Shown here: positions 7,117 through 23,022 of the stretch, one piece after another
Position numbering within the stretch: the first letter of the stretch is position 1
Layout: every line of letters starts with the position of its first letter
NCBI GenBank assembly: GCA_016840405.1
Contig: JAEOSK010000023.1
Location: 1 to 42,947, forward strand
Source: Candidatus Hermodarchaeum yapensis
GTDB taxonomy: Archaea; Asgardarchaeota; Hermodarchaeia; Hermodarchaeales; Hermodarchaeaceae
DNA length: 42,947 nucleotides
Direction of reading: 5' to 3'
Notes under the pieces: generated by a model
Database searches by the model: none
Told to the model about the DNA's origin: nothing
Seen by the model: only the letters and a program-made list of their open reading frames with translations
Position numbers and translations under genes: made by a program

Positions 7117-7884
7117 TCAATTGAACAGAGTATTATAAAAAGTAATGAGAAGAAATCCGAGTAAAACTATGCCTAGCATAAATGGGATTAGTAACATCGT
7201 CCAAAACGCAAAGCCGGACCAAAAGGTTAGTGTAAAAAATAAACTAATCGCAACTGTAATCGGTATCTTTGGAAAATCTTTGATTTCCATTTTTAATGAA
7301 ATCACCAAAACCGTAGAAACACCAAAACCAGTAAAAAACCAACCAGCAAAATTGGATAACGGCACTCCATAATAGAATCTTGGAGTTATCCATATCTAAA
7401 TACCAAGGTAAACAAGAATCGGATCGATTATGAAATCAATTATTACAAGAAGGAACGCACTGAGGAGAATGATTTTCCAAGGCTTCTGTAAATACTGAGT
7501 TACTATTGTCACTGTTCCCAAGACAAGTGGAAAAAAGGCAAAAGGGACTGCAAATGGAACTACCCCTAGAATCTTAATTCCAAGTAAATCAGAGTAAAAA
7601 AAATGCCCATAAGGAAACCCCGTTAAAACTCCCATCCCCTCGATGAATAAAGTAAGTATTACGAGAGTTGAAATAATCACAGATGAGTTTTTTGCACCTG
7701 CCTATTAGTAGAAAAAGTGCAAAGAGGGTGGAGCTACAATAACCACAATAGAGTTGAATAAAACCAAGGGAACCATGACTGGAAGAAAAAAGAAGAAATA
7801 GCTTATTACATATGACCCAAGAATGAATAAACCAAACCGAAAAATGATCGGTGTGAAGAATAGCTTTCTTGTTAATGTTGTAAT
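7117..7884 (-). pseudogene. cruF: CruF-family carotenoid hydratase (bisanhydrobacterioruberin hydratase), interrupted
   Basis: Three track ORFs (7705-7965, 7396-7680, 7117-7365) share one frame. Joined, they give IEGMGVLTGFPYGHFFYSDLLGIKILGVVP, DFIIDP and YYGVPLSNFAGW. In-frame stops are TAA 7705-7707, TAG 7702-7704 and TAG 7396-7398. An ATT at 7882-7884 overlaps the lyeJ stop where a coupled ATG would sit. Confidence 0.85.
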
Positions 7885-8744
7885 TAGAGTATCACTATTT
7901 TTGGTATGGTAATTGTGAAGAAGAGAATTAATCCGAAAATCGCGTTCCAGTAGGGAAATAGCCAATAAATCCTCTCAAGATTAGCACTTCGTCGAAGCAA
8001 GAGGTAGAATGGAATAGCGGGATAAACGAACATTAGTACACTCCAAGGAGGATTCCATGGTACAATGAACACAAGGATAATTGCAAATATAAGCCAGAAT
8101 GTAAAGCAGAGAATGAGAGAGGGAATCAAATTAATTAGAACTGCAGTTGTTGTAACATTTGCTCGTTTATCTGCTTCGATGTCTGGAACTGCTGAGAAAA
8201 GGTGCATGGCTGAGGTCCACATAAAAGCAGCAAAAAGTGGAAGAATCGGTGGAATAAATAATTGTAGTTGGTAGAAGGCGAGAATTGCTGGGATGACATA
8301 GAGGAAATTTGACATAAAGTCAAGGAATGGACGAGCCTTGAACCGAATAGGTTTGGCACTATACAAGAAGGAAAGTATCAAGAAGATGACAAAGAGAAGT
8401 CGGGCTATGTTATCCGGTTGAAAAACCATGAGAATAAGTCCATAAACGAAAGCGATGATAATTAACGATATCAGGTTGCGTCTATCTTTCGTTGTCACTC
8501 GATATTCTTTATCATCCTTTTTCGGGTTGAAAATATCAGTATCTTCATCATAGTAATCATTAACACCATAAAGGAAGATATTCGCAGGGAACATGAAAAA
8601 GAAAAGATGGAATGCAAAGAACGGTGTAAGAAATTGACCAACTGTGGTCAACCCGATAACGAAGCCAATAAGATAAGTTCCACCAAGATATAGCCAAAAC
8701 CGTGGACGAGAGATCCGAAAAGCAAGGCGAGTAATACTACTCAA
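7884..8744 (-). CDS. lyeJ: Lycopene elongase/hydratase (UbiA-family prenyltransferase, LyeJ/CrtEb type)
   Basis: ISRPRFWLYLGG, YGVNDYYDEDTD-NPKK, YSAKPIRFKARPFLD and AMHLFSAVPDIEAD motifs; lies between crtD and cruF as in haloarchaea. Confidence 0.85.
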   Translation of the reverse strand: MSSITRLAFRISRPRFWLYLGGTYLIGFVIGLTTVGQFLTPFFAFHLFFFMFPANIFLYGVNDYYDEDTDIFNPKKDDKEYRVTTKDRRNLISLIIIAFVYGLILMVFQPDNIARLLFVIFLILSFLYSAKPIRFKARPFLDFMSNFLYVIPAILAFYQLQLFIPPILPLFAAFMWTSAMHLFSAVPDIEADKRANVTTTAVLINLIPSLILCFTFWLIFAIILVFIVPWNPPWSVLMFVYPAIPFYLLLRRSANLERIYWLFPYWNAIFGLILFFTITIPKIVIL

Positions 8745-8754
8745 TATTTTTTCC

Positions 8755-10233
8755 TCATGAACTATTTTCTTTGGCTATTTGATCTGCAACAATTTGTGAA
8801 GATACAAGAGCCATTGGAACTCCAATTCCTGGATGAGTGTATTGTCCCGTGTAATAGAGGTTTTTCACCTTCTTACTTTTATGGCGTGGTCGAAAGAAGG
8901 CGGATTGACGAAATGTATGGGTAAGCCCCACAGCTGTGCCTTTGTAGGCATGATAATCATTGGCAAAATCGTTCAAAGCGAAGATGCGTTTAACGGTGAT
9001 TGAATCTTGAAACGATTCTCCAATTGATTCCTCCATGTGTGTGATGATTTTGGTGAAGTATTTTTCTCGAATCTGTGGTGTATCTTCAATTCCCGGAGAA
9101 ATAGGGACAGTGACAAAAATATTCTCTTTACCTTTCGGTGCCACAGACGAATCGTATCGTGAGGGACAGCAGACATAATAAGCTGGTTCGTCAGGCCATG
9201 CGGGTTGATCAAAGATTTGGTTGAAATGTTTCACCCAGTCATATTCGAGAAAGCAATTATGGTGAGTTAATTGTGGTAATTTCTGGTCGACTCCAAGATA
9301 CAGCACAAAGGCTGAAGGCGCAATGATTTTCTTTTCCCAGTATTTTGCTGAGTAAGTTTGATATTTTTTATCAAGCAATTCCATTTCAGAAAACGGATAA
9401 TCCGCATTGACAATTACTATATCGGCATCAGTTACTCCCTCAGAGGTCTGCACATGGTGTGCTTGACGATTCTTTACATCAATATGAGTGGCATCAACTT
9501 CAAATTGAAAAACCGCACCATAAGATTCGGCAAGTTTCATAATTCCTTCAGGAATCATCCCAAGGCCACCTCGAGGGTACCAGACACCAAGATTGTAATC
9601 GATATGTGAAATAATCGAGTAGAGTGCAGGAGTATTGGTTGGGTTTCCTCCGAGGAATACAATAGGATATTCTAGGATTTTTCGGGCACGATCACTTTTG
9701 AAGAATTTACGGACCCATTTGTCAATGTTACTTAAGATGTGCAATTTTTGTCCAGCTTTTATGAGCTTAGGGCTAAACATGGACCAGATACTGCTCAAAT
9801 CCTCGTACATAACACCCTCCATCATGAAAGTGTAGGTTTCTTCAGCTTTGTCCAAATATTTCTGTAATTTTTCGCCACCTTTTTCTTCAAAGCTATCAAA
9901 AGTCTTCAAATTGGGTTCTAAGTCAGCTGAAATATCGACAACATCATCTGCTCCAAAAAAGATACGATAATTTGGATCGAGTCGAATTAATTCATAATAA
10001 TCAGCTACTGATTTTTCAAATTGAGCAAAGAAATTTTCAAAGATTTCTGGCATAAGATACCAAGAGGGGCCCATATCAAAGACAAACCCCTCGGTTTTCC
10101 AAACTCGGGCACGTCCTCCAACTTCAGTGTTTCTTTCAATCACTTCTACATCGAAGCCATTTTTCGCAAGAAGCGCAGCAGCAGCTAGACCGCCTACACC
10201 AGCACCAATAATCAGAACTTTTTGGTTCTTCAT
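8755..10233 (-). CDS. crtD: Phytoene desaturase-family protein, carotenoid 3,4-desaturase by context
   Basis: GAGVGG, FDMGPSWYLMP and C-terminal GQYTHPGIGVPMALVS motifs; first gene of the crtD-lyeJ-cruF order. Confidence 0.7.
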   Translation of the reverse strand: MKNQKVLIIGAGVGGLAAAALLAKNGFDVEVIERNTEVGGRARVWKTEGFVFDMGPSWYLMPEIFENFFAQFEKSVADYYELIRLDPNYRIFFGADDVVDISADLEPNLKTFDSFEEKGGEKLQKYLDKAEETYTFMMEGVMYEDLSSIWSMFSPKLIKAGQKLHILSNIDKWVRKFFKSDRARKILEYPIVFLGGNPTNTPALYSIISHIDYNLGVWYPRGGLGMIPEGIMKLAESYGAVFQFEVDATHIDVKNRQAHHVQTSEGVTDADIVIVNADYPFSEMELLDKKYQTYSAKYWEKKIIAPSAFVLYLGVDQKLPQLTHHNCFLEYDWVKHFNQIFDQPAWPDEPAYYVCCPSRYDSSVAPKGKENIFVTVPISPGIEDTPQIREKYFTKIITHMEESIGESFQDSITVKRIFALNDFANDYHAYKGTAVGLTHTFRQSAFFRPRHKSKKVKNLYYTGQYTHPGIGVPMALVSSQIVADQIAKENSS

Positions 10234-10323
10234 GGAAAATTTTCCCCTAAAGAGACTCAATTTTTCATTTCTTGATATTTAATAATATGGTATAAATTCA
10301 TACAACGATTTTTTAATTAGTCA

Positions 10324-10343
10324 TGTCTTATAATAATAAGACA
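10324..10343. promoter_or_regulatory. Perfect 8-bp inverted repeat (TGTCTTAT-aata-ATAAGACA) in the divergent crtD/crtB promoter region; candidate operator
   Basis: Read directly; lies roughly midway between the two starts in an AT-rich spacer. Confidence 0.45.
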
Positions 10344-10436
10344 GTTATGATAGAAAGAGAGAAGCTTTTAAAAACTGAAATAGGAATTCCTTCAAAACTT
10401 AACGGCGTTTAAAAAAATATTTGGAGCTTTATTATA

Positions 10437-11375
10437 TTGCTTAGGGGAGAGAATTACCATTTAGAAGTTATCCCTACAACAATTCGTCCCAAGGAAAAGT
10501 TAAGCCAGGGTGAATTAAAACGGGCTTATAGTTATTGTTTGGGTTTATTTGGTAAACATGCAAAATCCTTTCATTTTGCTTCACGGTATCTTGAAACTGA
10601 CCAACGAAGAAGTATAGCTGCCCTTTATGCCTTTTGCCGTTTAACAGATGATTTTGTAGACGAAGTAGACATGAAGCCGAGCCAAATTGACACTGAGCTT
10701 AATGTTCTGACTGATATTGTACTTCGTTTAAGTGAAGGGGAATCCTTCAATCACCCGATTTTCCAAGCATTTGGCGATACATTAGTGAAATATCAAATTC
10801 CTGTTCAATATCTCAATGAATTAATTGAAGGCGTGAGGATGGATGTTCACCAAAAAGAACTCCAAAACCAACAAGAACTCGATCTTTACTGTTTCCGAGT
10901 TGCGTCCACTGTTGGTTTATCGATGTGCCACATATGGCGGTCTATTCACCCCGAGACACTCCAACGGGCATCCGAACTTGGCATAGCGATGCAGCAAACA
11001 AATATTCTTCGAGATATTGCTGAGGACTATGATAAGGGGCGAATCTACATACCCTTGGAAACCCGTAAAAAGTTCAGGGTGTCAGTTGCAGATTTCGAAG
11101 CCAGGCAAATTACACCGAATTTCCGATTTTTATTAAAACATGAGATTGCCAAGGCAAGAGCCAACTATGCCAGTGCAGAAATCGGTATGATGGACCTTCC
11201 TTCTGCAGCGGCTTTTACCATCAAGGTTGCATCAAGAGTATATGCAAATATCTTGAATCAAATCGAGAAGATGGACTATCAAGTGTTCAAGGCGCGAGCA
11301 GTGGTTCCTAAATGGAAGAAACTCTGGATAGCCTATCAGTGTCGCCGTGAGTACAAACGCGACCTTCGAAAATAA
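10437..11375 (+). CDS. crtB: Phytoene synthase
   Basis: HAKSFHFAS, ALYAFCRLTDDFVD, YCFRVASTVG and TNILRDIAEDYDKGRIYIP motifs; TTG start uncertain. Confidence 0.9.
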   Translation: MLRGENYHLEVIPTTIRPKEKLSQGELKRAYSYCLGLFGKHAKSFHFASRYLETDQRRSIAALYAFCRLTDDFVDEVDMKPSQIDTELNVLTDIVLRLSEGESFNHPIFQAFGDTLVKYQIPVQYLNELIEGVRMDVHQKELQNQQELDLYCFRVASTVGLSMCHIWRSIHPETLQRASELGIAMQQTNILRDIAEDYDKGRIYIPLETRKKFRVSVADFEARQITPNFRFLLKHEIAKARANYASAEIGMMDLPSAAAFTIKVASRVYANILNQIEKMDYQVFKARAVVPKWKKLWIAYQCRREYKRDLRK

Positions 11376-11426
11376 ATTTTGTACCGATTATTTGAGGCAA
11401 ATGAAAATTCCCTAAAGTGACTTAGA

Positions 11427-12935
11427 GTGACCCCAAAAAACACACAAAACATTGTCATAATAGGCGGAGGTTTTGGTGGCTTATCAGCAGCAGTACGATT
11501 GCAAGCCAATGGTTACAATGTAACAGTATTGGAAAAACGTAACCAGCTTGGAGGTCGAGCTGGACTCATTGAACGAAAAGGTTTCCGATTTGACACAGGC
11601 CCTACGATAATTACTCCACCTTCCGTAGTAGAAGATATCTTTCTCGAAGCAGGACGCGATCCCCAGGACTATGTTGAACTAGTTTCAATTCATCCGCACT
11701 ATCGCCTCCATTATGCCGATGGAACACACTTCGATATTGGCACTTTCGAAGAGGTTGCACAGCAAATTCAACAACTGAGTCCTAATGATTTGAAAGGGTA
11801 TCAGAAATGGCTCGAAATTCTTGAACCCATCTATAAACTCGGCTTCGAAAAATTCGCAAACACACCCTTTGATAGCCTTTGGAGTATGGCCAAGATTGTG
11901 CCATCAGCTATTCGTCTGAAATCTTACAAAAGTGTCTATGGACTTGTCGCTAGTTATATGAAAAACGAGAAGCTTCGTATGGCATTTTCATTTGTTCCCC
12001 TCTTTATTGGCGGAAATCCCTTCACGACAACAAGTGTTTATTCACTGATTGCCTATCTCGAAAATAAGTATGGTATGCTTTGGGTTCGGGGTGGAACCCA
12101 TCGATTCGTTGAAGCCTTAGAGAAGTTATACTTAGAACTTGGGGGAACTATCAAACTAAATTCAGAAGTGACTAAAATTGAGGTCGATGAGAAAGACCGG
12201 AGGGTCACTGGTGTATTCACCGCAAGTGGAGATCACTTTCCCACTAACATTGTTATTAGTAACGCCGATGTTGCCATGACCTACATGAAACTCATTGATA
12301 AACGATTTCGTCGGAAAAACACAGATCGCCGATTCAAAAAGGCTAATTTTAGTATGAGTTTATTCATGGTTTATTTTGGAACTAAAAAGAAATATCCAGA
12401 TATGCCGCACCACAACGTCATTTTTGGCCCTCGATATAAAGAACTTATTAAAGACATCTTTGACCGTCATATCCTCCCTGATGATTTTTCCATTTATTTG
12501 CATGTACCAACAAGGACAGATCCAGAACTTGCACCTCCTGGTTGTGAAACCTTTTATGCATGTGTTCCGGTCACGCATCAAGACTCTGGAATCGATTGGG
12601 AAGAAATGAAAGAACCGTTTAAGAATCGAATTTTGCAGTACCTGAATGACCATTATCTTCCTGATTTATTAAATAACCTTGAGGTATGTGAGGTCTTTAC
12701 CCCCCAAGATTTTGAAAAAGAGCTGAACGCTTACAAAGGAAATGCATTCCAATTACAGCCTCTTATGACTCAATCTGGATGGTTCCGACCACACAATCGT
12801 TCACGTGATATAAAGGGCTTATACATAGTTGGTGCTGGAACTCATCCAGGTGCGGGAGTGCCGAGTGTCTTACTTAGTGGAAAAATTACTTCAGAGATCA
12901 TTTTCAGCGACTATGGGAAACCATCAATTGAATAA
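11427..12935 (+). CDS. crtI: Phytoene desaturase
   Basis: IGGGFGGL, FDTGPTIIT, GGNPF, QSGWFRPHN and VGAGTHPGAGVPSV motifs. Confidence 0.9.
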   Translation: MTPKNTQNIVIIGGGFGGLSAAVRLQANGYNVTVLEKRNQLGGRAGLIERKGFRFDTGPTIITPPSVVEDIFLEAGRDPQDYVELVSIHPHYRLHYADGTHFDIGTFEEVAQQIQQLSPNDLKGYQKWLEILEPIYKLGFEKFANTPFDSLWSMAKIVPSAIRLKSYKSVYGLVASYMKNEKLRMAFSFVPLFIGGNPFTTTSVYSLIAYLENKYGMLWVRGGTHRFVEALEKLYLELGGTIKLNSEVTKIEVDEKDRRVTGVFTASGDHFPTNIVISNADVAMTYMKLIDKRFRRKNTDRRFKKANFSMSLFMVYFGTKKKYPDMPHHNVIFGPRYKELIKDIFDRHILPDDFSIYLHVPTRTDPELAPPGCETFYACVPVTHQDSGIDWEEMKEPFKNRILQYLNDHYLPDLLNNLEVCEVFTPQDFEKELNAYKGNAFQLQPLMTQSGWFRPHNRSRDIKGLYIVGAGTHPGAGVPSVLLSGKITSEIIFSDYGKPSIE

Positions 12936-12976
12936 TCTGAGAAACTACTTTTTTTCGCTAATACCCTCGACAATTA

Positions 12977-13213
12977 TTACTTGAAAAGTTCTGTTGCTAG
13001 ATCCAAAGCGGATCTCGCATCAGGAGCATAACCATCAGCCCCAATCTTCTTCCAAAGCTCTTGATCAATCATAAATGCCCTACGGCCAACGACTATTTTC
13101 AAATCTTTAATATTGTCATTCTTTCTTATCGTAGTGATGACTTTCTCTACTTCAACGACATGCAGAGGAAAAGTTACTAAAAGGGCTAACAGATTAGCAT
13201 TCTGTTTTACTTG
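12977..13213 (-). pseudogene. C-terminal remnant of a cobalamin (B12)-binding domain protein
   Basis: Manual translation: QVKQNANLLALLVTFPLHVVEVEKVITTIRKNDNIKDLKIVVGRRAFMIDQELWKKIGADGYAPDARSALDLATELFK*. An upstream TAG at 13214-13216 closes the frame; no full-length start and no ExH/DxH ligand motif. Confidence 0.75.
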
Positions 13214-13304
13214 CTATATGAAAATTCTTGAAATATCAGAACTTCTGAGTACTTTGTTGATTTAAACCTTAGAGCAAATAGCAGAAAATGATGGCGCTTC
13301 ATTA

Positions 13305-13778
13305 CTATGGTGATCCCAATGCGATAGTTTCAATTATCTCCTTTAATTTCACAATAACGAGAGGTTTCTCTGGAGAAAGAGAAGCCCAGCTATCTGTGGT
13401 TTTCAATCCATGAGCTGCAAGGAAGTTTGTGGATAATTTTTTTGCACCAACTTCAGACATTTGCCTAATCACATTAGTTCTTTCCGCAGAATCCGTTACT
13501 ATTTCCAATTCTCCACGGAATACAACAAAGCAATATTGATGTAAATCAGGTTGGTAGGATTCGATTTCAACGGCTACACGATTATCTTCCTCGATGAGCT
13601 TCATTTTCTTCCCGTAGCGTGTGAAATGAAAATAGAGGTTTCCATTGATGTAGGCATACTGAAATGGAGCCATATACGGGTATTCTTCTCCCCTGAAAGC
13701 AATTCGACAAATTACCTGTTGTTTGAGTAGCTCTTCAACTCTTTGTCGCTCCATTTTAGGCAATTTAACAATAGACAT
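13305..13778 (-). CDS. Pyridoxamine 5'-phosphate oxidase-like (NimA-type) flavin-binding protein
   Basis: CRIAF-YPYMAP-LYFH-GKKM-RVAVEI split-barrel pattern; GAGGTG upstream of ATG 13778. Confidence 0.8.
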   Translation of the reverse strand: MSIVKLPKMERQRVEELLKQQVICRIAFRGEEYPYMAPFQYAYINGNLYFHFTRYGKKMKLIEEDNRVAVEIESYQPDLHQYCFVVFRGELEIVTDSAERTNVIRQMSEVGAKKLSTNFLAAHGLKTTDSWASLSPEKPLVIVKLKEIIETIALGSP

Positions 13779-13852
13779 TAGAAACACCTCTTACATACCT
13801 GAAGAAGCCTTCCCAAATAAATGCAATACGGATTCTTAACTGGGTGGTGAAC

Positions 13853-15244
13853 ATGGAAAGAGCCTATGAAAACTCATTATTTATTTTTCGACGTGATCTA
13901 CGACTCGAGGACAATTTAGGGTTGATTAATGCACTCACCAACTCTTCGGAAGTTGTTCCATGTTTTTTCTTCGACCATAGACTACTAGCTACCAAGCAAC
14001 AGCATCATAATGCTATCCAATTTATGGTTGAAGCGCTGAAAGATTTGGATGATCAATTGACTCAGAAGAATGGCCAACTTTTTTGTTTTTCCGACTTTCC
14101 TGAAAAAAAAGTTCCAAGTTTAATTAGTTCACTTCATATTGATGCTATCTTTGTGAATCGTGATTATACCCCATTTAGTCAGCGACGAGATTCCCGGTTG
14201 AGAAAAATATGCGACCAGGCAAGTGTAGACTTTCACCAATTTGCTGATTTGCTTCTTAATGAGCCTGAAATGGTTCATAAATCGAATGCTGAACCGTATA
14301 AGGTCTTTACACCATTTTTCCAAAAAGCGGAGCAGATTCCTGTAGCGTCTTCGAAGGCGAATCCTCATCGGAATTATTCATCGCCAAAGATTTTGCGAAA
14401 AAAGATTCTCACCTCAGTTCTTAAGAAATATCAATTTCAGACCAACGAAAGGTTGCTTTTTCAAGGCAATAGATCTTCCTGCCTAAGAATACTCGAGGAT
14501 TTGAGTCCTTTTCGAGATTATGAAACCAAGCGTGATCTTCCCTTTGAGCATGGAACCACTCAACTATCACCGTATCTAAAATTTGGACTTTGTTCAATTC
14601 GAGAGGTCCATGCAGCTGTTTCGAACCAGTTAGGAGCAACACATCCTTTAATTCGACAACTATACTGGCGTGATTTCTATACTCATATTGCCTTTCATTA
14701 TTCCTATGTGTTTAAACGGGCATTCAAAGCCCGATACGAAAATCTTCAATGGAACAAGAGTAAAACACTCTTTCAAGCCTGGTGTGAAGGAAAAACTGGA
14801 TTTCCGATTGTAGATGCTGGGATGCGTCAACTCAATACGACTGGCTGGATGCATAATCGGGTTCGTATGATTGTCGCCTCATTTCTGACCAAGGATCTTC
14901 ACATAGACTGGCGTTCAGGAGAAAGGTATTTTGCTAAACATTTAGTCGACTATGATCCTGCAGTGAATAATGGAAATTGGCAATGGGCCGCTTCAACAGG
15001 TGTTGATGCACAGCCTTACTTCCGAATCTTCAATCCCTGGCGCCAACAAGAAAAATATGATTCCAACTGTGAATACATTAAACATTGGATTCCCGAATTA
15101 TCACAAGTCGAACCCAAGATAATTCACCGATGGTTTAAGCCAACAAAGTGGGATTCCCAACTCAATTACCCTAAACCCCTTGTTGATCATAAGCAAGAAA
15201 GCCAATTTTCAAAGGAACTTTTCGCGAAAACTTACTCAACTTAA
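13853..15244 (+). CDS. phrB: Deoxyribodipyrimidine (CPD) photolyase
   Basis: FRRDLRLEDN, LSPYLKFG, QLYWRDFY, GKTGFPIVDAGMRQL, WMHNRVRM, DYDPAVNNGNWQW and YFRIFNP motifs; Trp triad positions present. Confidence 0.92.
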   Translation: MERAYENSLFIFRRDLRLEDNLGLINALTNSSEVVPCFFFDHRLLATKQQHHNAIQFMVEALKDLDDQLTQKNGQLFCFSDFPEKKVPSLISSLHIDAIFVNRDYTPFSQRRDSRLRKICDQASVDFHQFADLLLNEPEMVHKSNAEPYKVFTPFFQKAEQIPVASSKANPHRNYSSPKILRKKILTSVLKKYQFQTNERLLFQGNRSSCLRILEDLSPFRDYETKRDLPFEHGTTQLSPYLKFGLCSIREVHAAVSNQLGATHPLIRQLYWRDFYTHIAFHYSYVFKRAFKARYENLQWNKSKTLFQAWCEGKTGFPIVDAGMRQLNTTGWMHNRVRMIVASFLTKDLHIDWRSGERYFAKHLVDYDPAVNNGNWQWAASTGVDAQPYFRIFNPWRQQEKYDSNCEYIKHWIPELSQVEPKIIHRWFKPTKWDSQLNYPKPLVDHKQESQFSKELFAKTYST

Positions 15245-15703
15245 TTACTGTGTGTACTTACTGATGGGTCCCCAATTTTCAATACAGTCATTTTCTGGTT
15301 TCTTTGTACAAAAATGAATTAAAACAGGTGATTCATCCAATTCTTGTTCTTTGTCAAAGAATTCACGATCCCCATAACGGATAGCTTCTAAAACGAGGTC
15401 TAATTCCCGGCGAAAAATAGCTTCTCGAAAGCTTCGAGAGCCAAGTCCGCGAACAACCTGACAATAAACATGAAGAGCAGTACCATCTTCATCTATAGTC
15501 AATTCAGCAAGAACCTCATCCCGCATGAGTCGGGTGTACAAACCCTTGATTTGTTTGTAGTCGTAATCAGAGCCTATAGTGAGAAAAAGATTTCCCGTCC
15601 TATCTGAATGAGTAAGGGTATATCGACGGGGGAATTTTTGATTATTGGGTGATAGTGAATCGAGATAGCGAACTTTCAGTTTTTCAGGTCTCAATCTTGC
15701 CAT
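15245..15703 (-). CDS. Staygreen (SGR) family protein, Mg-dechelatase homolog
   Basis: PRRYTLTHSDRTGNLFLTIG, MRDEVLAE, LHVYC, IFRRELDLVLEAIRYGD and ENWG motifs. Confidence 0.9.
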   Translation of the reverse strand: MARLRPEKLKVRYLDSLSPNNQKFPRRYTLTHSDRTGNLFLTIGSDYDYKQIKGLYTRLMRDEVLAELTIDEDGTALHVYCQVVRGLGSRSFREAIFRRELDLVLEAIRYGDREFFDKEQELDESPVLIHFCTKKPENDCIENWGPISKYTQ

Positions 15704-15728
15704 TTAAAACCCCAACACATGAAGTTCC

Positions 15729-16184
15729 TTAGAGTTTTAATTCATCAATCTTTGATATAATTTCATCAACGTGCCCTGGGACTCGAACCTTTGGCCATAC
15801 AAAGCGAATTATTCCTTCACGATCTATGAGAAACGTTGATCGTTGGGCAGAACCGGTTTCAGGTTTAAGCACATCGTAAAGTTTGACTACTTTTAGTTCC
15901 TTATCTGCGATTAGAGGAAACTGTAATGCATTTTTCGCTTTGAAACCAGATTGTCGTTTGACACTATCGGTGCTTACCCCAACGACTTTCACACCCATTC
16001 CTGTTAGACGAATCATATTATCACGAAAAGAGCATGCTTCCTTTGTACAACTTGGAGTACCCGCACGTGGATAGAAGTATAACACAATGATATTTCCACG
16101 AAGATCACTTAGTGTTAGTTCTGATCCATCATCGATAGGAGCGGTAAAATCAGGGGCATTTTGTCCTATTTCTGGTAAAGCCAT
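15729..16184 (-). CDS. bcp: Peroxiredoxin, BCP/PrxQ family
   Basis: VLYFYPRAGTPSCTKEACSFRD (CxxxxC) and RSTFLID motifs. Confidence 0.9.
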   Translation of the reverse strand: MALPEIGQNAPDFTAPIDDGSELTLSDLRGNIIVLYFYPRAGTPSCTKEACSFRDNMIRLTGMGVKVVGVSTDSVKRQSGFKAKNALQFPLIADKELKVVKLYDVLKPETGSAQRSTFLIDREGIIRFVWPKVRVPGHVDEIISKIDELKL

Positions 16185-16282
16185 TTGTATCACCTCATTT
16201 AATTTTCAAGCCAATCTATGGTATTTAGAAGAGACAAGAAATGAGGGAAAAAACCCCTCATTTGATTGTAATTACTAGAATC

Positions 16283-16684
16283 CTAATTGGGCAAAATCAC
16301 TTTATCAATGACGTGGATCACGCCGTTCTCAGCTTCAATGTCAGCTTTGATAACGTGGGCATCATCGACTTTAACACCGTCCGAGGTGTCAATATGGATA
16401 CTTTGGCCCTGGACCGTTTTTATTTCGCCTTTGCTGATGACGTCTTCGGCCTTGTATTTTCCTGCTACAACGTGGTAGAGGAGAATCGCTTTCAGCTTTT
16501 CCGTGTCTTTTAGAAGAGCTTCGACCGTACCCTCTGGGAGCGCATTAAAGGCATCATCAGTTGGGGCGAACACAGTAAAGGGTCCATCACTCGACAAGGT
16601 TTCGGCTAATCCAGCCGCGGTAGCAGCCGTTAATAGAGTATTAAACTGGCCTGCATCTTTTGCAATTTTTACAATATTTTCCAT
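16283..16684 (-). CDS. Single-domain fasciclin (FAS1) protein without signal peptide
   Basis: [19 protein letters not shown] and [11 protein letters not shown] motifs. Confidence 0.92.
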
Positions 16685-16929: not shown

Positions 16930-17568
16930 TCATGCCTTTTTTACCCGGAAAAGGATGATAAGTCCGTAGATGAGTTTTGTGATTACATCTAAAGCAGCGT
17001 AGAGTATTGCGGCGATGAATGTCGTAATGAGACCGAACCCTGTTGGTGCAAGGAGGAATACTAGTGGGAAGAGTGACCAGAAGATTATAATGAACCACAT
17101 AAGTTGTGAATTCATTCCTTCTCTTGGAACACCTTTGAATAAGGTGATGAGTAGAGCGATATAGGCAATGGAACTGAAAGCGAAAAACCACCACCGTTCG
17201 ATGCCTGTAATAAAAGCGGCCAGAAATCCACAGAACATCACGAGCATCGTCAGGATAGGAATTTTCGCAAGGGCGACTGGTTGTGTATGTCTCAGAACAA
17301 CTGCAACCGACACGGTTAGTAAACTACAGCTAGCCATGTAAAAGAGCCATCGGCTCCAATAAATTGGTTCACCAAAAATTGATGTGACTGTCAGGAAACC
17401 AAGTGCCATCAGAACATACGAAATTGTGGTAACGAAGGCAACTATGATATCAACGAACGAAAGGAATTCATCGGCTCCAGATCGAAACGAAAGCAATGAA
17501 AACATTATTGAAGAAATGCCAAAGATTGCAGCCATAATCCAAAAGACGAGTAATTCTTCTCCAGCCAT
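16930..17568 (-). CDS. Microbial rhodopsin, schizorhodopsin-like
   Basis: 212 aa with seven hydrophobic segments. Helix C YWSRWLFYMASCSLL, helix F WSLFPLVFLLAPTGFG, helix G LDVITK with retinal Lys198 and Asp194. Confidence 0.88.
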   Translation of the reverse strand: MAGEELLVFWIMAAIFGISSIMFSLLSFRSGADEFLSFVDIIVAFVTTISYVLMALGFLTVTSIFGEPIYWSRWLFYMASCSLLTVSVAVVLRHTQPVALAKIPILTMLVMFCGFLAAFITGIERWWFFAFSSIAYIALLITLFKGVPREGMNSQLMWFIIIFWSLFPLVFLLAPTGFGLITTFIAAILYAALDVITKLIYGLIILFRVKKA

Positions 17569-17668
17569 TTTTCATATCTCCTTTTGGTTAGGTAAGGAAT
17601 AATAGAGTACGAACTTATTATAAAAATCTACCAACAGGACGGAGTGAATGTGAAAATTACGAAAAGTA

Positions 17669-18133
17669 TTAGGACTCGTCTTCAAATTTCGAGATTGCGT
17701 TTAAGACTGCAGTCTCTTTTTCCTCTGAAAACACTCCAGTGTCTCGCCAGAGGATATTGCCATCACAATCGACTAAGAAGAGGTAGATCGTGTCTTCAGT
17801 GGGAATATCTAATGCTTTGGTAAATTCACTTTTGTCAATATAGAGAGTAATTGTACGAGCTCGCATTACTTTGTCATGTATTCCGCCTCTCATACCACTG
17901 TCAATTATCCATTGAGAAAGCACATTGAATTTCCGAAGCGTAGGTAATTCATAGAATTGGATTTGCGGATGTTCTGTCACGAGTGTTTGGAGAAATGGTA
18001 CCCAAGTTTCAATGGGTCGTACTTGCCATTGTTGAAATGCTACTACGAGAAAATTAAGTTTGCCTTCTAATTTTTCTGGGATGATGTGGGAAACACCATT
18101 TAGGTCTTTTCCAGCGACTTGGGGAAATTTCAT
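17669..18133 (-). CDS. Conserved thioredoxin-like fold protein lacking CxxC (ATP10-like)
   Basis: FPxxxGxDLNG start, LVVAF strand, YELP, IDSGMRGGI and YLFLVDxDGNILWR end. Confidence 0.55.
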   Translation of the reverse strand: MKFPQVAGKDLNGVSHIIPEKLEGKLNFLVVAFQQWQVRPIETWVPFLQTLVTEHPQIQFYELPTLRKFNVLSQWIIDSGMRGGIHDKVMRARTITLYIDKSEFTKALDIPTEDTIYLFLVDCDGNILWRDTGVFSEEKETAVLNAISKFEDES

Positions 18134-18271: not shown

Positions 18272-18541
18272 TTATCCATATCTGAATGCCATACCAAAAG
18301 TCCCGCGGGGGTAGCTCCATTCGATGACTCGTTTGGGACATATGATTTTGCAAGTTCCACATTCGATGCAGTCTTCATATTGAAACAAGAATTTGTTTTC
18401 TTCGATTTTGAAGCAGCCTGCCGGGCATCCAACTATGCAAGGCTTGGTTCGACATTTTTCACATTTTTCAGTATTGACAATGATGTGAGGTTCTTTATCG
18501 AGATTGTAGCGGATGAGTCCGAGTTTTTCTTCGAGTTTCAT
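18272..18541 (-). CDS. fixX: FixX-type ferredoxin
   Basis: CEKC-PC-CPAGC and CIECGTCKIICP clusters, WSYPRG-YG terminus; ATGA overlap with fixC. Confidence 0.88.
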   Translation of the reverse strand: MKLEEKLGLIRYNLDKEPHIIVNTEKCEKCRTKPCIVGCPAGCFKIEENKFLFQYEDCIECGTCKIICPKRVIEWSYPRGTFGMAFRYG

Positions 18542-19821
18542 AATCCTCTTACCACTTGAAGACCATCCCGAATTAAGGAAGGTATTGTTACATTTCCGAG
18601 AACATGACGAATGAGGAGTTGTACTAGCTTCTGTCTCGGAACAGCTTTAGATGTGAAAAGATCATGAGCAAATGTATTTACCAGTTTAGGATAGGTTGAG
18701 TGCAGGCGCGGATTATTGAACAGATTATGGGCTCGTTTGAACGTTTTCATATCCTTTAGTACAAAACTATCTCTAAGTACCTGTTCATAACGTTTCAGAC
18801 TCCGTTTTGAAAAATCTCCTGTTTTAGTGGCTGCGATTACGGTTTCAGCGGCAGCTATTCCTGAAGCAATAGCGAAGTTCATTCCTTCTAATGCATATCC
18901 GATGTTAAAAGCTAGCCCCGCAGCGTCGCCAGTGACTAGAAATCCATTGGTGTAGAGTTTAGTTATTTTTGAATAGCCTCCTTCTGGAACTAAATGGGCG
19001 GAATATTCTTTGAGTTCACCATCTCGGATCAATCGTTGGATGAAAGCGTGGGATTTGTAGTGTTCCATGAGGTCAGGGGCTGTATCTTTGGTGACTTCAA
19101 ATGCAGGAAGAAAAATGACAAGCCCTAATGAAAGGGTGTCTTGGTTTGTGTAGAGAAATCCACCACCTGGATGGCCTTTCGTACATCCTATGAAGTGATA
19201 GGCTGCGCCTTCATTTCCGATGAGATTAAACCGTTCTTCAATAATTTTGCGAGGTAGTTTGTATACCTCTTTGATTCCGAGCCCCATTTGTTCAGATGTG
19301 TGTTCTTTTCGCATGTGGGCTTTTGCAGCGAGTTGCGAGTTAACACCATCAGCAGCAATGACAACATTAGCTTGAACTTCATCGGTTCCCGCTTTTACTC
19401 CGATAATTCGGTTCTTTTTCCATAATAAATCATCGACTCGAATCCCAGGAGCGAGAAGTGCACCTGCGTTTTCCGCTTGTTCAGCAAACCATTGATCGAA
19501 TTTGTACCGATTTATTGAATATCCATCATTCGGAACTGGCGAGCGTTTACCTGATGAAAAATCTAATGTGAATGCAGATTCATTGGAGAGGAGTGAGAGT
19601 CGGTGTGTTGTAATTCGGCGTTCAAGCGGTGCCTTTTCCCAATAATTTGGAATTAGATTATGGAGAACCTGCCCATAGAGAACGCCACCTGATACGTTTT
19701 TTTCACCTGGCGTTTTAGCACGTTCAACGAGCATTACCTCTAATCCATTTTTTGCTAATGAATATGCTGCGGCACTTCCCGCAGGACCTGCTCCAACAAC
19801 GATAGCATCTAAATTTTCCAT
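18538..19821 (-). CDS. fixC: FixC-family FAD-dependent (ETF:quinone) oxidoreductase
   Basis: GAGPAG, GEKNVSGG, GGGFLYTN, EYSAHLVPEGG and GDAAG motifs. Confidence 0.88.
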   Translation of the reverse strand: MENLDAIVVGAGPAGSAAAYSLAKNGLEVMLVERAKTPGEKNVSGGVLYGQVLHNLIPNYWEKAPLERRITTHRLSLLSNESAFTLDFSSGKRSPVPNDGYSINRYKFDQWFAEQAENAGALLAPGIRVDDLLWKKNRIIGVKAGTDEVQANVVIAADGVNSQLAAKAHMRKEHTSEQMGLGIKEVYKLPRKIIEERFNLIGNEGAAYHFIGCTKGHPGGGFLYTNQDTLSLGLVIFLPAFEVTKDTAPDLMEHYKSHAFIQRLIRDGELKEYSAHLVPEGGYSKITKLYTNGFLVTGDAAGLAFNIGYALEGMNFAIASGIAAAETVIAATKTGDFSKRSLKRYEQVLRDSFVLKDMKTFKRAHNLFNNPRLHSTYPKLVNTFAHDLFTSKAVPRQKLVQLLIRHVLGNVTIPSLIRDGLQVVRGL

Positions 19822-21552: not shown

Positions 21553-22455
21553 GTGATAAAAGGATTCGCAGTCTTCCGTATGGACCCTAAAATTGGACCA
21601 CAGCACGTCTATCGAAGTGACAGTATCGGTGAGGTCACCCATCAGGAAGTACTCGCAATTTTTGCAACTCACAACTTATTCCGTGAAGGTTTTCGTGGTG
21701 TCCATGTCAGTAACCGAACATGGGCAACTTACGTCTTTCCACCCTGGATTGTTGCACTTCTCCTTGGACCTGATGAGCCCATCGGCCCGCTCAGAGAGCC
21801 CATGAAAAAAACCTTGCACTCAAATAAACTGGGTGACAACCCGAAAGCCGAAGACTGGAAGAACCTTCATCGTGAGCTCATTGTAGAAATTCAAAGTTCA
21901 CCAGTTGCAGACTTTCTCACGTCGAAAAAAACAACTGATTTTCTGAAAGAGATGATTGACCTAGAAATCAATTTCTTTGACCCTCAGTTCAACTTTGAAA
22001 TTGGCACAACGTATCCTGCAGCAGATCATTTGACTGGACTCGATAGCTACGATACCCGACTCTTTCTTGAGAAACTGACTCTTGCAGGGATCTTCACGAG
22101 CGAGCCGGTAGTGGGCGTTACCCATTGTCCGATTTGTCTTGGATTTAAAGTCGTTAGTCGCCTTGCCTGTCCCAAGTGCAGCGTTACCGCCTTGGATGTC
22201 GTTCGATTTCCTGCTTCACCTGACTCAGACGAGGCGGAGAGTAGTGCTTCAAAGAAGCCCATGGAACTTTTCTATTCATGTATGACCTGTCAGCACACAA
22301 CTAGTGAACCCGTCGTTACCCTTCTTTGCACTGAATGTGGTTCACAATTTCAACCTGATGAAGCAGCCTATCGCAATATGGATAGACTCGTTCTAAATCG
22401 ACCTATCGCAGAATCCCTCATCAAGAAAGTTGAAGGAACAACTCCAAAAAAATGA
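21553..22455 (+). CDS. Longin-like N-terminal domain fused to a TackOD1-like multi-Zn-ribbon domain
   Basis: N-terminal FAVFRMDPKIGP hairpin with apparent bb-a-bbb-aa order; C-terminal FLEKLxxAG helix plus four CxxC pairs (CPIC, CPKC, CMTC, CTEC). Confidence 0.55.
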   Translation: MIKGFAVFRMDPKIGPQHVYRSDSIGEVTHQEVLAIFATHNLFREGFRGVHVSNRTWATYVFPPWIVALLLGPDEPIGPLREPMKKTLHSNKLGDNPKAEDWKNLHRELIVEIQSSPVADFLTSKKTTDFLKEMIDLEINFFDPQFNFEIGTTYPAADHLTGLDSYDTRLFLEKLTLAGIFTSEPVVGVTHCPICLGFKVVSRLACPKCSVTALDVVRFPASPDSDEAESSASKKPMELFYSCMTCQHTTSEPVVTLLCTECGSQFQPDEAAYRNMDRLVLNRPIAESLIKKVEGTTPKK

Positions 22456-22470
22456 ACTTGTGATGGGATC

Positions 22471-23022
22471 CTAAATTTTGTCCCAGGGTTTTCCGGACTT
22501 TTCGAAAGATTCCCAGATTTTCTCAGCAAGTGAAGTGAATACATCACTTACGTGAATATCGTCCTTGGCACTGCTTTCAAGGAAAATCATATTTTCCGCT
22601 TTAGATCGTTTTTCACCTTCTTCCTTGGTGACTACTCGTTTTTCTTCTAAATCTGTTTTACAGGCTACAAGAAGGAGGGGAATCCCCTCACAGCGTTGAT
22701 AGACTTGCTGGATCCAATGATCAATCCTGTCAAATGATTGTCGGTGTGTGATATCATAGGCAATAACAGCCCCAGCCGCACCCTCAAAGTATAGTCCGCG
22801 GATGAAGTCAAATCGCTCTTGACCTCCGGTATCATAGATGACAAGTTTGATATTGAATTTCTCTTTCAGTGTGATTTGTTTTGTGAAAAAGTCTACACCT
22901 AGTGTAAAGAGGTAGCTTTCATCAAATTGGCCAGTGGTGTATCGGCGTGCAAGGGAAGTCTTTCCAACTCCTGCATCGCCCACAACTATGACTTTATAGA
23001 CGACTTCGGCGATTTCTTCCAT
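22471..23022 (-). CDS. Rab-like small GTPase (Ras superfamily)
   Basis: G1 GDAGVGKT, TLGVDF, G3 DTGGQERF, YFEGA, YDIT, G4 CKTD and G5 SAK; no C-terminal Cys. Confidence 0.92.
   Translation of the reverse strand: MEEIAEVVYKVIVVGDAGVGKTSLARRYTTGQFDESYLFTLGVDFFTKQITLKEKFNIKLVIYDTGGQERFDFIRGLYFEGAAGAVIAYDITHRQSFDRIDHWIQQVYQRCEGIPLLLVACKTDLEEKRVVTKEEGEKRSKAENMIFLESSAKDDIHVSDVFTSLAEKIWESFEKSGKPWDKI

Follow-up and report, generated by a model that had tools for sequence, protein, structure and literature searches.

The opsin gene and its surroundings

The window (the whole 42,947-nt stretch of DNA analysed here) carries on its minus strand a schizorhodopsin (SzR) gene, with a GGAG on the same strand (17578-17581) 9 nt upstream of its ATG (Table 1). 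The protein matches the Pfam family Bac_rhodopsin (PF01036) with an E-value of 3.7e-22, and is the only match to that family in the 2.7-Mb, 86%-complete genome. In translation, its helix C reads R73-W-L-F76-Y-M-A-S80-C81-S-L-L-T-V-S87. The first-pass annotation had described it as an F-S-S schizorhodopsin (F76, S80, and S87), and the open reading frame, Pfam, and HMMER bear this out in all details, including residue numbering and codons.

Table 1. Positions in the window of the opsin gene, its key residues, and its neighbours.
Feature	Position	Strand	Remarks
Schizorhodopsin gene (P0001)	16930..17568	(-)	ORF, 212 aa + stop, ATG start
Glu34 codon	17467..17469	(-)	Clade-specific acid, cytoplasmic start of helix B
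Asp40 codon, GAT	17449..17451	(-)	Helix B; BR T46 / SzR4 N34 / MtSzR D40 position
Helix C, F76 to S80	17329..17343	(-)	Phe at BR D85 position, Ser at T89 position
Ser87 codon, TCG	17308..17310	(-)	BR D96 / SzR4 E81 / MtSzR D87 position
D194-V-I-T-K198, helix G	16975..16989	(-)	Single counterion Asp and retinal Schiff-base Lys
Asp194 codon, GAT	16987-16989	(-)	Read from window sequence
Lys198 codon, AAA	16975-16977	(-)	Read from window sequence
Tyr201 codon, TAC	16966..16968	(-)	Clade-specific F-to-Y; Schiff-base Lys +3, BR F219 position
Conserved neighbourhood	7884..16684	.	Pfam: UbiA prenyltransferase, two CrtI/CrtD-type desaturases, phytoene synthase, PNPOx-like protein, photolyase, Staygreen, peroxiredoxin, fasciclin
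Carotenoid cluster	7884-12935		UbiA prenyltransferase, two CrtI/CrtD-type desaturases, phytoene synthase
Staygreen gene	15245-15703	(-)
Fasciclin gene	16283-16684	(-)	Directly downstream of opsin
154-aa protein gene	17669-18133	(-)	Directly upstream of opsin
FixC/FixX pair	18272-19821
TackOD1-domain protein and small GTPase	21553-23022		Convergent

The surroundings of the gene are conserved: the order opsin-fasciclin-peroxiredoxin is kept in all four relatives examined, and the whole carotenoid/photolyase block in three of the four. The 86%-complete genome yielded no CrtYcd-type lycopene cyclase and no RPE65-type dioxygenase. Searches of it for Brp/Blh and for heliorhodopsin also returned nothing; these two matched no control genome either, so they do not show absence.

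Several of the neighbours deserve comment in their own right. The fasciclin protein (133 aa; PF02469, 1e-41) has no N-terminal hydrophobic signal sequence, and is 89-94% conserved and syntenic in the four relatives examined. Algal AstaP, which belongs to the fasciclin family, is a water-soluble carotenoid binder; by analogy, the protein encoded here could be a carotenoid or retinal carrier. Between the photolyase and peroxiredoxin genes is a stand-alone Staygreen gene (chlorophyll Mg-dechelatase family; PF12638, 7.5e-45), found here in a non-photosynthetic archaeon and kept in three of the four relatives. The 154-aa protein has a marginal Pfam match to ATP10 (23.4 bits; cut-off 22.3). In two of four relatives its gene is syntenic and the protein 75-85% conserved; in a third the contig ends inside the opsin gene, short of this position.

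A FixC/FixX pair is found downstream of the opsin both in the window and in the related locus L014. In two others (L015, 2960-4434, and L016, 12476-13962) a second, more divergent FixC/FixX-like pair, with about 60% identity, is inserted between crtI and the PNPOx gene; the island has therefore been rearranged within the genus. Farther along the window, a TackOD1-domain protein is encoded convergently with a Ras/Rab-like small GTPase (PF00071, 1.1e-50), both of them typical Asgard “eukaryotic signature” genes.

Family membership and the authenticity of Ser87

The best solved relatives by sequence (HMMER) are SzR4 (7e4g, 2.7e-32) and AntR (Antarctic rhodopsin; 9or2, 3e-29); no other solved rhodopsin scores better than about 1e-11. 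The AF2 model, computed from an alignment of 142 sequences, is confident (pLDDT 94.4, pTM 0.91) and has seven helices, and its top Foldseek match is 7e4g (TM 0.89/0.95, rmsd 1.6 Å), followed by the 9or* AntR entries. The RWxF(Y) feature of schizorhodopsins, with Phe at the BR D85 site and a lone helix-G Asp (10.1101/385732; PMC8040798), is present as R73-W74-L75-F76-Y77 with D194 as the single counterion. Two further SzR-typical residues, S80 and C81, match SzR4 S74 and C75; in a down-weighted family alignment, all 107 rows have Cys at position 81, and at position 80 there are 82 with Ser and 25 with Ala. The earlier reading that Asp194 and Lys198 are intact holds both at the level of the codons and in the family alignment, where the two residues are almost invariant.

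More generally, the residues with an ascribed function in SzR1 or SzR4 (roles as given in PMC7148096, PMC8040798, and 10.1101/2025.10.20.683367) are all present except at position 87: R73, F76, Y77, S80, C81, L84, W164, P168, D194, T197, and K198. The hydrophobic barrier is present as well (L36/V91, equivalent to SzR4 L30/L85). What is absent is the helix-C carboxylate of the FSE/FSD motif: the HMMER alignment pairs Ser87 with Glu81 of both SzR4 and AntR, and Asp40 with SzR4 N34. SzR4, like SzR1 a Lokiarchaeial FSE schizorhodopsin, is about 35% identical, has the same fold, and shares R, F, Y, S, C, and L in helix C and D...TK in helix G. Members of the family are typically compact, the cytoplasmic ends of TM2, TM6, and TM7 being short. 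The 212-aa window protein exceeds SzR4 by 3 residues at the cytoplasmic end of TM2 and by another 3 in the E-F loop. TM6 (residues 151-173, with P168) is intermediate, with about 17 residues from the Pro to the helix end by DSSP on the model, against 13 in SzR4 and about 21 in other type-1 rhodopsins. The gene encodes a schizorhodopsin, presumably a functional one that binds retinal.

A maximum-likelihood tree of 142 rows, computed with columns 40 and 87 removed and rooted on three DTD/DTF rhodopsins, places the protein inside a 38-row clade (SH-aLRT 99) within a 139-row SzR group (SH-aLRT 100). The 38 rows, counting the query, are the full-length F-S-S proteins, which are therefore monophyletic, and the suggestion of a distinct subclade made from the single sequence is borne out. 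A search over 5.8 billion proteins had yielded 115 homologues. The nearest of these (P0002-P0039) are 74-99% identical to the query, and come from metagenome-assembled genomes labelled Hermodarchaeia, Hodarchaeota, Thorarchaeota, or Promethearchaeota. Every one of these is F-S-S, so that Ser87 is invariant in 38 clustered homologues; all have Asp40 as well, except P0035, with Glu (37 D and 1 E of 38).

Among species-representative genomes, exactly one rhodopsin was found in the window genome and in each of 10 of the 14 other species of the genus, and none in the four sister-genus genomes searched. All 11 of the genus genes are F-S-S with Asp40. Across these 11 genomes Ser87 is written with all four TCN codons (TCG, TCC, TCT, and TCA), and the pairwise Nei-Gojobori dN/dS has a median of 0.056, with dS about 1-3 (10 of the 55 pairs are saturated). 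The opsin is therefore strongly conserved, intact, and under strong purifying selection. Among the species genomes searched, loss of the carboxylate with fixation of Ser is confined to this one genus.

These observations also dispose of a trivial explanation, that the unusual residue stems from faulty sequencing or assembly, or from decay of the gene. The codon of the window gene is two changes away from GAG and three from GAA, and it had been argued on similar grounds that a single-base error was unlikely; the 38 homologues and the four TCN codons in 11 genomes now establish that the motif is due neither to chance nor to error. Together with the low dN/dS (about 0.06), the intact reading frame, and the confident AF2 model, they reduce this explanation to a negligible one.

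Position 40 and the missing helix-C carboxylate

The closest characterised counterpart is MtSzR of Methanoculleus taiwanensis (P0045), known from a cryo-EM preprint (bioRxiv 10.1101/2025.10.20.683367), which falls in the same unresolved archaeal SzR group on the tree. The two proteins are 54% identical by BLASTP and align without gaps over residues 1-90, so that Asp40 and Ser87 correspond to MtSzR D40 and D87 with the same numbering. They also share the longer TM2, the barrier positions 35/36/91, and I205. MtSzR differs in being Y-S-D, and in having F201, S44, and S118, where the window protein has Y201, A44, and A118, as well as an acidic residue 34. The preprint identifies D87 of MtSzR as the acceptor facing the cytoplasm and D40 as the counterpart of SzR4 N34, with two waters bridging the pair. 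In SzR4 itself, N34 and T195 hydrogen-bond E81, and the protein is inactive as E81Q but active as E81D (PMC8040798).

Asp40 had been assigned to helix B from the translation alone. The assignment stands, and can be extended: the residue sits on what is predicted to be the core-facing side of the helix, within the acceptor cavity, at the site whose occupant touches the helix-C carboxylate in structures of relatives (N34-E81 in SzR4, D40-water-D87 in MtSzR). By conservation moment and helical periodicity, it is 42 degrees off the conserved TM2 face, grouped with L36, V43, T47, S50, and M54.

The first-pass annotation had gone on to propose that the acceptor moved from helix C to helix B, Asp40 being a relocated carboxylate. 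This can be ruled out, since an acid at position 40 predates the loss at 87: neighbouring FSD, YSD, FSE, and FSN lineages have D, E, H, or N there, and D or E at 40 stands alongside D or E at 87 in sister lineages including MtSzR, P0040, P0047, P0057, and the FAD group (E40 with D87). With an acid at 40 already present in the neighbours, the parsimonious history is a D40/D87 pair followed by D87S. A pair that already existed has lost one of its members, with Asp87, as in MtSzR, the ancestral residue.

The tree and the wider family give some idea of how often this has happened. Schizorhodopsins were found in 26 of 400 species genomes of the phylum, always in single copy, and these fall into three types: Ser87 with Asp40 in the window genus (11 genomes); F-S-D with Glu40 in two genomes of another family; and F-S-E with Asn40, like SzR1 and SzR4, in thirteen genomes of families f9 and f28. 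Three acceptor pairs (E81/N34, D87/E40, and S87/D40) are thereby mapped within Asgard genomes. An FSD-type gene of another Asgard family (L028, at G308:C12:1781-2407) contains one in-frame TAG, while that of its congener (L029) is intact; the TAG could mean that the gene is a pseudogene, that the assembly is at fault, or that the stop codon is recoded.

Across the family tree, parsimony requires at least 8 changes at position 87 and at least 5 at position 40. D or E is found at both positions in 39 sequences, at 87 only in 37, at 40 only in 47, and at neither in 16. In an exhaustive search at the level of 50%-identity representatives, a deep, mostly bacterial AntR-like branch was found to carry the motifs FST, FSS, GSS, GST, GSV, GSH, FSH, CSS, and VST; these variants all have Ala or Pro at position 40, as do the 16 carboxylate-less sequences of this branch in the counts above. 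In the archaeal part of the tree, the carboxylate at 87 has been lost three times independently, in the FSS clade, in an eight-row FSN clade (P0053, P0059-61, P0063, P0065, P0071, and P0117), and in an FSV protein (P0076), each time on a D/E40 background. Like the window protein, the FSN and FSV proteins have thus kept the acid at 40, but they have Asn or Val at 87, are 45-52% identical to it, and lack Y201; no characterisation of them was found. That an acid at 40 was kept through all three archaeal losses is suggestive, though they are only three events. A test of whether Ser87 and Asp40 co-vary had been proposed; an independent-pairs test on the tree detects no such association, with only two pairs on supported branches and hence no power. 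The same test gave no signal for positions 87 and 201, again with two independent pairs on supported branches and no power.

The published record points in the same direction as these counts. E or D was reported at the helix-C site in 58 of 63 schizorhodopsins (PMC7148096). Of the exceptions, SzR2 has His82, which is dispensable, and its pumping depends instead on the helix-G residue D197 (PMC7148096). AntR (PDB 9or2/9ork), which does have the carboxylate, pumps about like wild type as E81Q, with the helix-B residue D30 proposed as a substitute (PMC8040798). The list of characterised bacterial schizorhodopsins in 10.1101/2025.10.15.682728 includes a GSS_AntR, whose name suggests that it carries G-S-S. 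In these proteins, as in the window protein, the helix-C carboxylate is dispensable or absent; they belong, however, to the separate deep branch, with 30-40% identity and Ala or Pro at 40, and the alternative groups proposed for them (AntR D30 and Y193, SzR2 D197) lie at positions other than that of Asp40.

Is FSS, then, common among characterised schizorhodopsins? Not literally: no paper was found that combines “FSS motif” with rhodopsin, and the SzR papers searched do not use “FSS” in their main texts. The missing carboxylate itself, on the other hand, was already known from bacteria and is not rare. Loss at this site is common in the family and has characterised bacterial precedents, while the version found here, in an archaeal SzR, is uncharacterised: neither an archaeal F-S-S clade nor a characterised archaeal SzR lacking the carboxylate is mentioned in the literature searched, which also reports no functional data on any member of the FSS clade.

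Possible modes of action

Other substitutions were fixed together with D87S, a set that is new here. They emerged when the clade (38 members) was set against the 37 archaeal schizorhodopsins closest to it, a substitution being counted when at least 90% of clade members have it and no more than 15% of the neighbours do. F201Y is found in 37 of 38 clade members and in none of the 37 neighbours. F37S is also fixed, and with F201Y adds hydroxyls beside the cavity, while S44A and S118A remove them; position 38 changes from a polar residue to Phe. All but one of the 38 clade members have E or D at residue 34, and P0041 is the only one of the 37 neighbours with an acid there; HMMER aligns Glu34 with AntR D30, across an uncertain gap. 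E102K, W171F, L191A, and a few lipid-facing changes complete the list.

Tyr201 occupies the position of BR F219, a residue in the wall of the cytoplasmic channel that joins the Schiff base to D96/T46. Tyr201 is 3 degrees off the conserved TM7 face, in line with D194. The hydrogen-bond donor on this helix in SzR4, T195, is replaced in the window protein by I205, so that the TM7 hydroxyl would in effect have been shifted one turn toward the Schiff base. In SzR4 the essential E81 is hydrogen-bonded by N34 and T195; the window protein has S87, D40, and I205 at these three positions, with a Tyr at K+3.

Inward proton pumping of one kind or another is the probable function of the protein. The particular version favoured here, to which about an even chance may be given, is an inward pump in which Asp40 supplies the cytoplasmic negative charge, stabilised by Ser87 and Tyr201; the geometry of these three residues is projected from homology and helical periodicity. 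Protons would move inward by the “untrapped release” mechanism of the family. After retinal isomerisation the Leu84 gate would open, and a buried negative charge, supplied by Asp40 in place of residue 87, would pull the Schiff-base proton toward the cytoplasm. Asp40 would be the sole carboxylate of the cavity occupied by N34-E81-T195 in SzR4 and by D40-water-D87 in MtSzR, and would be kept deprotonated by hydrogen bonds from Ser87 on helix C and Tyr201 on helix G in a mirror of the SzR4 triad; Ser37, Glu34, and Asp33 would extend the polar path to the surface. Since the L84 gate and the L36/V91 barrier are retained, light-induced opening could still uncover this charge and so pull the Schiff-base proton inward. 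SzR2, AntR E81Q, and (as listed in 10.1101/2025.10.15.682728) GSS_AntR offer precedents, by analogy, for pumping without a helix-C carboxylate, and the position of the opsin within a conserved island of carotenoid and photolyase genes is also consistent with a pump. Against a specific part for Asp40 are the lack of co-variation between 87 and 40 and the Ala or Pro found at 40 in the 16 carboxylate-less members, which indicate that a helix-B carboxylate is not generally required. Against the pump as such stand the E81Q mutants of SzR1 and SzR4, which no longer transport (PMC7148096; PMC8040798), and the searches of the 86%-complete genome for lycopene cyclase, Brp/Blh, and RPE65-type dioxygenase, which turned up no candidate source of retinal.

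One alternative is an inward pump that needs no specific cytoplasmic carboxylate at all, relying on transient water wires as in AntR E81Q, with Asp40 dispensable or merely structural. Many representatives of the AntR-like branch have S, T, V, or H at 87 together with Ala or Pro at 40, the AntR mutant pumps about as well as its parent (PMC8040798), and FTIR of SzR1 showed no stage at which E81 traps the proton (PMC7148096). The archaeal proteins argue otherwise: the charge is essential in those tested, where E81Q is dead and E81D active (PMC8040798); every loss at 87 in the archaeal part of the tree retained D or E at 40; and Asp40 is invariant across the 11 genus genes, whose synonymous sites are near saturation. 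A pump of this kind is accordingly an unlikely reading of the window protein.

As a further possibility, loss of the acceptor may have turned the pump into a slow-cycling photosensor or regulator, signalling to the adjacent photoprotection genes or co-regulated with them. E81Q abolishes transport in both of the archaeal schizorhodopsins tested, SzR1 and SzR4 (PMC7148096; PMC8040798), so that pumping may have been lost in the FSS clade as well; SzR4, it should be added, has Asn rather than Asp at 34. An island with photolyase, peroxiredoxin, and carotenoid genes surrounds the opsin, and the small conserved protein with the weak ATP10 match is encoded directly upstream of it. Known sensory rhodopsins have no carboxylate at the position of BR D96; that of Anabaena, for instance, has Ser. 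It is less easy to reconcile with such a role that Pfam scans of the flanking ORFs show no transducer gene (HAMP/MCP or ASRT-type), only peroxiredoxin, fasciclin, the weak ATP10-like match, and FixX/FixC; that no second rhodopsin was found in this genome or in any relative, so that the opsin is not a sensory paralogue beside a pump; and that all of the pump-associated residues apart from position 87 are retained. That the FSS clade represents the first non-pumping schizorhodopsin, a photosensor reporting light to the photoprotection island, perhaps via the small upstream protein, therefore seems rather doubtful.

Transport of another ion, or another proton mode (an outward pump or a light-gated leak), could be imagined from the remodelling of the cytoplasmic half (D87S, F201Y, S44A, S118A, and E102K). 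The Schiff-base region, however, is identical to that of characterised inward proton pumps at R73, F76, S80, C81, D194, and T197, and Phe at the BR D85 site leaves neither an extracellular acceptor nor an anion site, making any of these highly improbable.

For the inward pump with Asp40 as its charge, as for its competitors, the wider interest lies in a question of mechanism. How schizorhodopsins push protons inward without trapping them on a residue is still debated, and the helix-C glutamate is indispensable in the archaeal members tested but not in the bacterial AntR. The FSS clade is a natural and strongly selected archaeal variant in which the helix-C acid is gone, its helix-B partner is kept, and few nearby changes have been made. 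The small set of these changes (F201Y, S44A, S118A, F37S, and the acidic residue 34) amounts to a short list of reciprocal mutants with MtSzR, which could show whether a buried negative charge alone suffices for inward pumping, and where it may be placed.
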